64,000 bases of DNA from an archaeon (GCA_021107855.1 JAIORZ010000002.1:245425-309424); one strand, 5' to 3'. Positions 25,211 to 30,581 are shown, numbered from the stretch's first letter. Notes: generated by a model from the sequence alone, not told the origin. Numbers and translations: made by a program.

Positions 25211-25242
25211 TCGGGGTTTATTAACAATTTGAATAAACCCGA
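25211..25242. terminator. Inverted repeat between the converging nuclease gene and tRNA-Lys
   Basis: GGGTTTATT (25214-22) / AATAAACCC (25232-40), a perfect 9-bp stem. Confidence 0.4.
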
Positions 25243-25268
25243 GGAGGGTCTATAAATGAAAATGAAAA

Positions 25269-25343
25269 TGGCCTCGAGGGGATTTGAACCCCCGACACCT
25301 AGATTAAGAGTCTAGTGCTCTAACCAGGCTGAGCTACGAAGCC
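25269..25343 (-). tRNA. tRNA-Lys(CTT), CCA not encoded
   Basis: GGCTTCG/CGAGGCC acceptor, CTAGA-CT-CTT-AA-TCTAG anticodon arm, GTTCAAAT T-loop. Confidence 0.97.
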
Positions 25344-25418
25344 ATGGGCGAAGTAGCGAAGTCCTTTTAGGCTGAGGGCCGCAGAGCGGGTCATCCCTGT
25401 GGGAAGCTACGAAGCCAT
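25332..25418. repeat. 14-bp direct repeat of the tRNA-Lys 5' end flanking a 59-bp GC-rich insert
   Basis: AGCTACGAAGCCAT at 25332-45 and 25405-18. Confidence 0.85.
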
Positions 25419-25452
25419 AAACATTCATGAGAAATTCAATTTAAAAAACTAT

Positions 25453-25719
25453 CTAACTAACTATCTTCCTAATCGCGGCAATATGCTCCGAAACCTCAGT
25501 CCCTCTCTTCGTCAACTTAATAATCTTAATCCTTCCCTTCTTCTCAAAACTCACAAGCCCAATCTCCTCCAAAGTCTGCAAAATCTTCACGGCATGCGAA
25601 TACGTACAATCGACCTCCTTAGCCAACTGCGAACCGTACTTCGCCCGAGAAACTTTCCCAAGCGCTATCAGCATCATCGCTGGTTTTCTCCTGAAAAATA
25701 AATCAAAGCTGGTTCCCAT
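25453..25719 (-). CDS. Winged helix-turn-helix DNA-binding protein
   Basis: SQLAKEVDCTYSHAVKILQTLEEIGLVSFEKKGRIKIIKLTKRG. Confidence 0.85.
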   Translation of the reverse strand: MGTSFDLFFRRKPAMMLIALGKVSRAKYGSQLAKEVDCTYSHAVKILQTLEEIGLVSFEKKGRIKIIKLTKRGTEVSEHIAAIRKIVS

Positions 25720-30309: not shown

Positions 30310-30489
30310 GGATTTGAACCCGGGTCACTGCCGACCGTAAGGGCGAACTTTGAGCTGTCTGACTAATATATAGATATACAGATTGGTCGAAGTGAGTAGA
30401 GTAATTTGCTCGAATTTTCCCAACGGAGTGATTAGAAAATTTTAGAGTGAATTGCGAAAAGGTATCCTTGGCCACTAGACTATAAGAGC
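30310..30489 (-). pseudogene. Degenerate duplicate tRNA-Glu split by a ~120-bp insertion at the anticodon arm
   Basis: The 3' part GGATTTGAACCCGGGTCACTGCCG (30310-33) is identical to the intact gene; the 5' part 30464-91 has 1 mismatch in 28 nt; the promoter is duplicated; the 3' acceptor strand is missing. Confidence 0.8.
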
Positions 30490-30581
30490 ATCTCTTTAAT
30501 GGTTAATTTTAATTTTTAAAGGTTATGTTATATATATAGGGTAAGGGAATAATTTTAATAGCCAAAACATCTAACAAAGGA

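Follow-up and report, generated by a model that had tools for sequence, protein, structure and literature searches.

A promoter-proximal tRNA-Lys relic split by a conserved hairpin module in a DPANN archaeon

Mobile DNA classically lands in tRNA genes, and the question of how those of archaea come to be broken up or split is a live one. Correia, RPE and ERIC are small, MITE-like, non-autonomous structured repeats that enter transcripts. In Nanoarchaeum equitans the transcription of tRNAs is reported by Randau and colleagues (2008) to be leaderless. Archaeal integrated elements of the SSV1 and pNOB8 types have partial tRNA duplications at their borders, and in Caldiarchaeum subterraneum a 5' fragment of tRNA-Thr is found together with a 1.8-kb recombinase element, for which the proposed model explicitly permits an attP with extra intervening sequence (PMC3293823). 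Intron transposition in the tRNAs of Thermoproteales involves the spread, at the DNA level, of intron-like sequences among tRNA genes (Fujishima 2010, as summarised in PMC4090602). A full-text literature search returned papers on att sites and on intron transposition, and among its results there were no relics split by a conserved hairpin module and no description of leaders that run from a promoter to a relic. Here, we describe a tRNA-Lys gene whose promoter points at a relic of the gene's own 5' end.

The gene lies on the minus strand of a 64,000-nucleotide stretch of DNA (the window, in which positions are counted from the first letter) that belongs to a metagenome-type assembly of a DPANN archaeon (G000; 0.94 Mb in 14 contigs, 38.5% GC, 85% complete). 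Read 5' to 3', the locus is made up of a canonical promoter, a 5' relic of tRNA-Lys that is split by a module here called M, a tail and the complete tRNA-Lys(CUU), or CTT in the notation of the gene. The intact gene (25269..25343, minus strand) has no intron and no encoded CCA, scores 69 bits with Rfam RF00005 against a gathering score of 29, is assigned the anticodon ctt by ARAGORN and is 96-100% identical to the tRNA-Lys of congeners; a T-rich stretch (25268-25253) follows directly on its 3' side. The true 5' end of this tRNA, with 2 upstream bases, forms the second copy (25332..25345) of an exact 14-nt repeat. The first copy is the relic (25405..25418), which likewise holds 2 upstream bases and tRNA-Lys positions 1-12, so that on the minus strand 25418-25405 is repeated at 25345-25332 with a period of 73 nt. 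The chance of an exact 14-nt repeat within 100 nt is roughly 1e-6 or less.

The 59-nt insert between the repeat copies (25404-25346) has three parts: M, tRNA positions 13-17 and the tail. M takes up 30 nt (25375..25404) between relic positions 12 and 13, and is matched by our covariance models R1 and R2 at 55-64 bits. Behind it the relic continues into the beginning of the D loop with tRNA positions 13-17/18 (25369..25374, equal to 25331-25326 of the intact gene; positions 13-17 themselves lie at 25374-25370), and this continuation is invariant across all five aligned Lys loci. The presence of the D-arm continuation inside the insert had been pointed out in an earlier note on this DNA; it is seen as an 8-mer at 25376-25369, and the positions given in the note are correct throughout. 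The tail (25346..25368) consists of an A/T-rich box and then a C/U/G-rich block that is conserved in the alignment of the five Lys loci. Between the repeats there is no ORF, no integrase and no element body, and a search of 25230-25480 against Rfam at a permissive threshold matched tRNA alone, with no ribozyme, box C/D or other family on the insert. Readings of M as a box C/D or K-turn, as a hammerhead or as an integron attC-like structure were rejected by eye against consensus features, the required G.A or core bases being missing. In the CTT copy a small internal duplication gives the tail complementarity to relic positions 1-3 and 7-11; a tail-relic minihelix was considered, which has 8 of 11 pairs in this copy but is absent from the tRNA-Lys(TTT) copy and from the related genomes G092 and G131, and is therefore not general. 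By nearest-neighbour folding the leader alone reaches -22.1 kcal/mol. The relic, with 0-1 changes in 12 nt, is better conserved than the loops of the surrounding module and the tail.

The BRE/TATA box (25441..25450, minus strand) is the sole canonical promoter of the locus, and the earlier note had proposed that it is aimed at the duplicated 5' fragment and not at the intact tRNA-Lys. We built a 10-nt position weight matrix from the upstream regions of 31 further tRNA genes in G000, and its best match falls at -34 to -36 in 27 of them, a near-fixed spacing. Counted from the first base of the relic, the box of tRNA-Lys(CTT) scores 10.4 bits at -34, the modal position, whereas at -34..-36 of the intact tRNA, which starts 73 nt further on, the matrix returns -18 to -20 bits, the best match anywhere being 3.4 bits at -31. 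The proposal is upheld, and the intact gene has no box at the working distance. The T-rich box starts at 25447/25448 and the relic's first G is at 25416, and the 31-nt distance from box to G1 is indeed common to tRNA-Glu (30299 to 30268) and tRNA-Ile (28515 to 28484). The box of tRNA-Lys(CTT) is also present at the tRNA-Lys(TTT) locus and in relatives; at tRNA-Lys(TTT), tRNA-Gln(CTG) and tRNA-Ser(GCT) a 10-bit box lies at -34/-35 of a relic, and none is found at that spacing for the intact gene. Since the box spacing is so tight, and given the usual archaeal distance from TATA to start, transcripts in this genome would be expected to start at or beside tRNA +1. The primary transcript at tRNA-Lys(CTT) would then most likely start at the first base of the relic or an adjacent one.

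The only other tRNA-Lys of the assembly, tRNA-Lys(TTT) (C1:170192-170385), has an identical layout and is 87% identical to the CTT locus over promoter, relic, insert and tRNA. Each relic matches its own tRNA, with C5 in both TTT copies and T5 in both CTT copies. Other tRNA genes of the genome carry relics with different inserts. tRNA-Gln(CTG) (C1:154154-154279) and tRNA-Ser(GCT) (C1:223778-223912) each consist of a promoter, a relic (positions 1-14 and 1-15, respectively), a 39-nt hairpin insert and the intact gene; the two hairpins are related to one another and differ from the M insert of the Lys loci. A third copy of the 39-nt hairpin is located at C1:183040, between two promoter-like boxes before the gene of a small basic protein. 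Within the tRNA cluster C3:24793-26610, Leu(CAA) has both a 5' relic of 11 nt (80-nt insert) and a 3' relic (insert of ~95 nt), and 3'-end relics with inserts of 90-105 nt are found at Arg(TCT), Cys, Leu(CAA), Gln(TTG) and Met. Partial upstream copies that include a duplicated promoter belong to Arg(TCG) and to the window's tRNA-Glu(TTC). In all, terminal self-duplications affect at least 10 of the 39 tRNA genes detected in the genome, and at least four tRNAs would have leaders of 53-73 nt. Remote 12-13-mers that match tRNA ends elsewhere in the genome lie within coding regions and look like chance, and the neighbour of tRNA-Arg(TCG), considered as a possible integrated element, is aIF5B/IF-2.

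A further class of insert, the family-4 module, is an intron in one tRNA gene and an insert in truncated tRNA copies elsewhere (C1:55655, C1:204126, C1:365568, C1:365788 and about 30400-30455 of the window), with at least six tRNA-associated copies. The copy in the window belongs to the second tRNA-Glu(TTC) (30310-30524, minus strand), which lies upstream of the intact gene with a duplicated promoter of its own. This second copy is broken after about position 37 by ~105 nt that include the module, and it ends in the T loop; the anticodon stems of its two halves are mismatched, which marks it as a chimeric pseudogene. Elsewhere in the genome (C2:135250-135400, minus strand), a 393-nt 'tRNA-Asp with a 300-nt intron' called by ARAGORN is a miscall, the 3' part of which is tRNA-like, with the anticodon UGC and the family-4 module at the canonical 37/38 intron site.

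M is laid out as a first hairpin (25404-25394, minus strand) with a sequence-conserved 4-bp stem, a conserved linker of 3-4 nt, a second hairpin (25389-25379) in which the 4-bp stem is kept while the sequence varies, and a C-rich 3' end. Among 20 aligned copies, the stem of hairpin 2 has 16 cells changed on both sides, compared with 4.7 +/- 1.6 in shuffles and with none of 500 shuffles reaching that number; sliding the partners leads to a sharp loss of pairing. The alignment of this hairpin was model-fitted, and the raw sequences display the same swaps. With R1 and R2, a sample of 151 genomes from the order gave matches to M in 10, all of them members of the host's family; in a sample of 151 genomes (150 genera) from the family, 25 genomes (24 genera) had M, at no more than nine copies each. 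Some weak matches in coding repeats that enter these counts are probably false. G000 has two copies, both at tRNA-Lys. We read 70 matches in context, and most lie beside tRNAs (at least 20 genomes and at least 16 genera). None of these 70 is in a complete tRNA gene; M sits in truncated tRNA copies, at position 12/13 or 55/56. In the 5' type, M interrupts at 12/13 a relic that precedes tRNA-Lys, -Met or -Thr. In the commoner 3' type it stands behind an intact tRNA (Lys, Leu, Arg, Gln, Gly and others), the order being intact tRNA, a second conserved piece, a copy of the tRNA-specific T-stem 5' strand, M at 55/56 and a copy of positions 56-73, and such units are often repeated two or three times. 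Three copies in G191 (L068, L092 and L093) form a class in which M is flanked by the 5' and 3' acceptor strands alone, 6 nt on each side, which amounts to 'acceptor stem plus M' mini-hairpins without a tRNA body.

Across genera, the tRNA copies that M disrupts range between an almost entire gene and a relic of 12 nt. The repeat is 12, 12, 12, 14, 16 or at least 18 nt long in the 5' type, where it spans from the first base of the tRNA (plus a few upstream bases) to position 12, and 17-24 nt long in the 3' type, and it always reaches the terminus of the tRNA. Because the duplication runs exactly to the end of the tRNA, the intact gene is always preserved, and because tRNA sequence continues past M, the conserved or mobile unit is the 30-nt M inside a decayed upstream copy of the tRNA. 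M and its sisters belong to a family-wide class of gene-free, hairpin-rich mini-modules at tRNA ends in these DPANN archaea, one that is apparently undescribed. They occur solely within truncated terminal tRNA copies that have an intact copy of that tRNA as neighbour.

An uninterrupted allele, which the earlier note had suggested looking for in relatives, is present at the syntenic site in three genomes of the same genus (G018, G005 and G004), where the promoter directly abuts tRNA-Lys and the matches to promoter and tRNA overlap by exactly 14 nt. An attempt to date the insertion from these congeners was abandoned, the flanks being only ~75% identical and too diverged. Within the genus, the M layout is found at tRNA-Met in G003, where the unit is in tandem, and at tRNA-Thr in G041. 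The order relic, M, tail and tRNA-Lys recurs in other genera, in G092 (at both isoacceptors), G131, G268 and G254, and is spread over at least four other genera; G254 has a longer relic, up to about position 33, and a duplicated promoter. The inserts of the CTT and TTT loci are 87% alike in G000 and ~92% alike in G092, and ~70% alike between G000 and G092 (the last two values by eye). The inserts cluster by genome and not by isoacceptor, which suggests that the two Lys loci within a genome exchange sequence. A third kind of truncated copy, a mirror image of the window's relic, exists in G013 (L042, C2:2149-2257, minus strand), where a 5' relic is missing and tRNA-Lys positions 13-76 join M directly, ~300 nt downstream of the intact tRNA-Lys(CTT) and behind the end of an ORF. 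In G131 (C9, L043) and G254 (C33, L082), one tRNA-Lys gene has a 5' relic unit together with one or two 3' relic units, and the intact tRNA-Lys of both genomes has an intron at the canonical position.

How could a tRNA be matured from such a locus? Transcription that begins at or beside the relic's first base would give a precursor with a 73-nt structured leader and, as the earlier note held, this leader would need to be handled, given that the sole canonical promoter precedes the relic. Both tRNA-Lys genes of the assembly have this layout, and so the cell must be able to mature them. We lean, if only just, toward a route in which RNase P would cut at 25344/25343, ahead of the second, intact 5' end, with the relic excluded from the mature tRNA-Lys. 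Of RNase P RNA and HARP, named in the earlier note as enzymes to look for, the former has a candidate next to tRNA-Phe (C2:211894-212206; RF00373 at 72.5 and 65.1 bits, E 1e-20 and 4e-17, model positions 1-288, the full length), with scores below the Rfam gathering score of 84. PIN_5, which we take to be HARP-like, was not found in this 85% complete genome, nor were Pop5, Rpp29 and Rpp21, and Rpp30 (36.2 bits against a Pfam cut-off of 35) is the only RNase P protein detected. tRNA-Ser(TGA) and tRNA-Ser(CGA) (C2:30648-30810) abut without a spacer and the latter has no promoter of its own, which suggests that Ser(CGA) is cut from a longer, dicistronic precursor. Folding calculations weigh against the RNase P route: the 3' acceptor strand would rather pair with the relic than with the intact 5' end, by 2.9 kcal/mol (CTT) and 8.0 kcal/mol (TTT), and correct folding is not guaranteed. 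Neither is the high conservation of the relic predicted for pure junk, and it counts against viewing it as a plain relic. The same two properties would suit removal of the 73 nt as an intron, with the endonuclease cutting after position 7 in both copies and RtcB joining the ends without RNase P, so that relic positions 1-7 would become the mature 5' end. In this fold the two copies of positions 1-17 would form a BHB-like, pseudo-symmetric duplex with three 4-bp helices separated by two 3-nt bulges, the middle helix being palindromic and made of positions 9-12 from both copies, and RNAalifold on the five Lys loci does pair 1-4 with 14'-17', 9-12 with 9'-12' and the inner 14-17 with 1'-4'. A splicing endonuclease is encoded as a single 175-aa ORF (PF01974, 95.5 bits), a type compatible with splicing, since alpha4-type endonucleases that bear an additional loop are reported to accompany, in DPANN lineages, a higher number of disrupted tRNA genes (PMC5829648). 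Transcription that seemingly starts at the relic +1, and a relic near-identical to the intact copy at most loci, would also agree with splicing. Against this, the pairs of the BHB-like fold are all invariant and offer no covariation support, each flanking helix has a mismatch beside the bulge, and the 30-nt M lies opposite the second bulge. Moreover, the Gln and Ser relic loci are, by reading, unable to form such a fold, and M never occurs in an otherwise complete, sole-copy tRNA. The borders of M (12/13 and 55/56), compared by hand and in both mirror versions with the strict BHB that tRNA-Ile has in the window, gave no fit. The tRNA-Lys(CTT) relic equals the intact copy, hence the locus itself is uninformative on exon use. 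In G268 the relic has C5 and the intact copy T5, with an A as 3' partner, and in G041 the relic has A6 where the intact copy has G6 paired to C, the relic base breaking the pair, so that splicing would place a mismatch in the acceptor stem of both. These mispairing variants argue that the relic is not an exon of the mature tRNA, and we regard splicing as unlikely. An internal promoter would remove the need for either route: the A/T-rich box after relic positions 13-17 could serve the intact gene, and the upstream promoter and the relic would be irrelevant. This box is conserved in all Lys loci, reaches 7.8 bits in the TTT locus and is, by our own count, at the canonical distance in G092 (CTT); here, however, it has 3.4 bits at -31 compared with 10.4 bits for the upstream box, it lies anywhere between about -25 and -36 relative to +1, depending on the locus, whereas genuine tRNA promoters of the genome vary by no more than 3 nt, and the Gln and Ser relic loci lack it, which makes its use decidedly improbable. 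Finally, a mis-joined repeat could be imagined in a metagenome-type assembly of 14 contigs, and a related locus in G003 is tandemly repeated and partly masked. Since the layout recurs at a second locus that is 13% diverged and in independent assemblies of other genera, the chance that it is an artefact of assembly appears close to negligible.

Three origins can be envisaged for the unit: a mini mobile unit served in trans, eroded integrations, or tandem duplication followed by insertion of the module. The earlier note had suggested an element inserted in the D stem with a 14-bp target duplication, which would amount to a conventional MITE-like transposon of 59 bp, and the exact 14-nt repeat, the empty sites in congeners and the occurrence of related modules in different tRNAs all speak for it. 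A foreign structured piece does sit at position 12/13, and that part of the suggestion stands. The fixed duplication does not, since the repeats at sister loci are 12, 12, 12, 16 or at least 18 nt long and are always bounded by the tRNA terminus, in the 5' and the 3' type alike. Nor does the extent of 59 bp: tRNA sequence resumes past the module, namely positions 13-17 at this locus, positions 13-33 in G254 and almost all of the gene in G041. Terminal inverted repeats are lacking, for on reading the two ends of the 59-nt insert are unrelated; both copies in G000 lie in tRNA-Lys, with matches across the family nearly all beside tRNAs. A transposon of this kind is thus very unlikely. Doubtful, but worth serious thought, is the idea that the locus is either the fused attL/attR scar of a tyrosine-integrase element, whose attP would have been a tRNA-like segment interrupted by M, as in the model for tRNA-Thr of Caldiarchaeum, or a tandem duplication of tRNA-Lys whose promoter-proximal copy was struck by M and afterwards eroded. 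A repeat that reaches the exact end of the tRNA, with the intact gene restored, is what integrase att sites look like (PMC3293823), and relatives offer suggestive cases. Two 3' relic units in G008 enclose a stretch of 1.1 kb that contains two ORFs, of 100 aa (with an HPFxxGNxR-like motif, Fic-like by eye) and 174 aa, neither of which was recognised as an integrase on reading their sequences. In G041, M and a second (family-4) module disrupt an old, almost entire tRNA-Thr that has an intron; its neighbour is a tRNA-Thr that lacks an intron, looks foreign and has a promoter of its own. The long relic and duplicated promoter of G254 fit as well. G000 itself has three tyrosine recombinases, one of them a 424-aa gene that starts 68 nt after tRNA-Arg(CCT) in the cluster C3:24793-26610; all lie away from the tRNA-Lys locus. 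On the other hand, an element body or integrase is missing between the repeats here and at most other loci, the same short unit size is seen in many genera and unrelated tRNAs where independent decay predicts otherwise, and in every case M divides the relic copy of the core. Of the ideas already described, this integrase model and the DNA-level spread of intron-like sequences come nearest, and the G008 and G041 loci and the family-4 module fit them. Neither model accommodates the uniform short size of the body-less units in many genera and unrelated tRNAs, the constant splitting of the relic by M, or its high conservation compared with its surroundings. Models of a retro type are weakened for G000, as no reverse transcriptase was found in the 85% of this genome that is covered. 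We tentatively entertain, at no better than modest odds of being right, that M and its sisters are new gene-free mobile elements that remake the end of a tRNA gene, and that the Lys leader has since been retained for a function. Insertion would occur in the D or T loop region and the end of the gene would be remade to the terminus of the transcript, either through an integrase supplied in trans and a tRNA-like attP or through repair that uses a leaderless tRNA transcript as template, so that the essential tRNA gene would survive beside an element-split relic. The leader formed by relic and module at the Lys loci might steer the folding or processing of the precursor, a notion suggested by its being kept across several genera with a relic almost unchanged and hairpins that covary.

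With at least 10 of 39, about a quarter of the tRNA genes in a 0.94-Mb genome combine short structured inserts with terminal self-duplication. M, traceable through at least 16 genera, provides a graded natural series in which the origin and tolerance of tRNA disruption can be followed. The promoters are seemingly set for tRNA +1, yet both lysine tRNAs would depend on the removal of a long leader. A decoy 5' end that competes for the acceptor stem would make RNase P, or an alternative to it, indispensable, which is directly testable.

The locus has likenesses to each of the described systems and fits none of them entirely. As at the borders of integrated elements (PMC3293823), a terminal tRNA segment is repeated to the terminus and the intact gene stands beside a displaced fragment, and as in the Caldiarchaeum case a 5' fragment with the host promoter has been left upstream. 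Unlike those elements, the Lys locus has 59 nt between the repeats, with no integrase and no body, the fragment itself is split by a conserved hairpin module, and the unit recurs across genera and tRNAs. The family-4 module, which serves as an intron at the canonical position and also interrupts truncated copies, recalls intron transposition in the Thermoproteales (PMC4090602); M differs from this in having no BHB at its borders, in never occurring in a complete gene and in coming with a terminal duplication that keeps an uninterrupted gene. With Correia, RPE and ERIC, M shares a gene-free, hairpin-forming sequence of tens of nucleotides, multiple copies per lineage and co-transcription with host genes, but it lacks terminal inverted repeats and a fixed target-site duplication, is found strictly at tRNA ends and is much smaller, with 30 nt for M and about 60-70 nt for whole units. 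Finally, the promoter boxes of G000 stand at a near-invariant distance from tRNA +1, which resembles the situation in Nanoarchaeum equitans, whereas G000, unlike that organism, keeps an RNase P RNA candidate, Rpp30, predicted leaders of 53-73 nt and abutting tRNAs.
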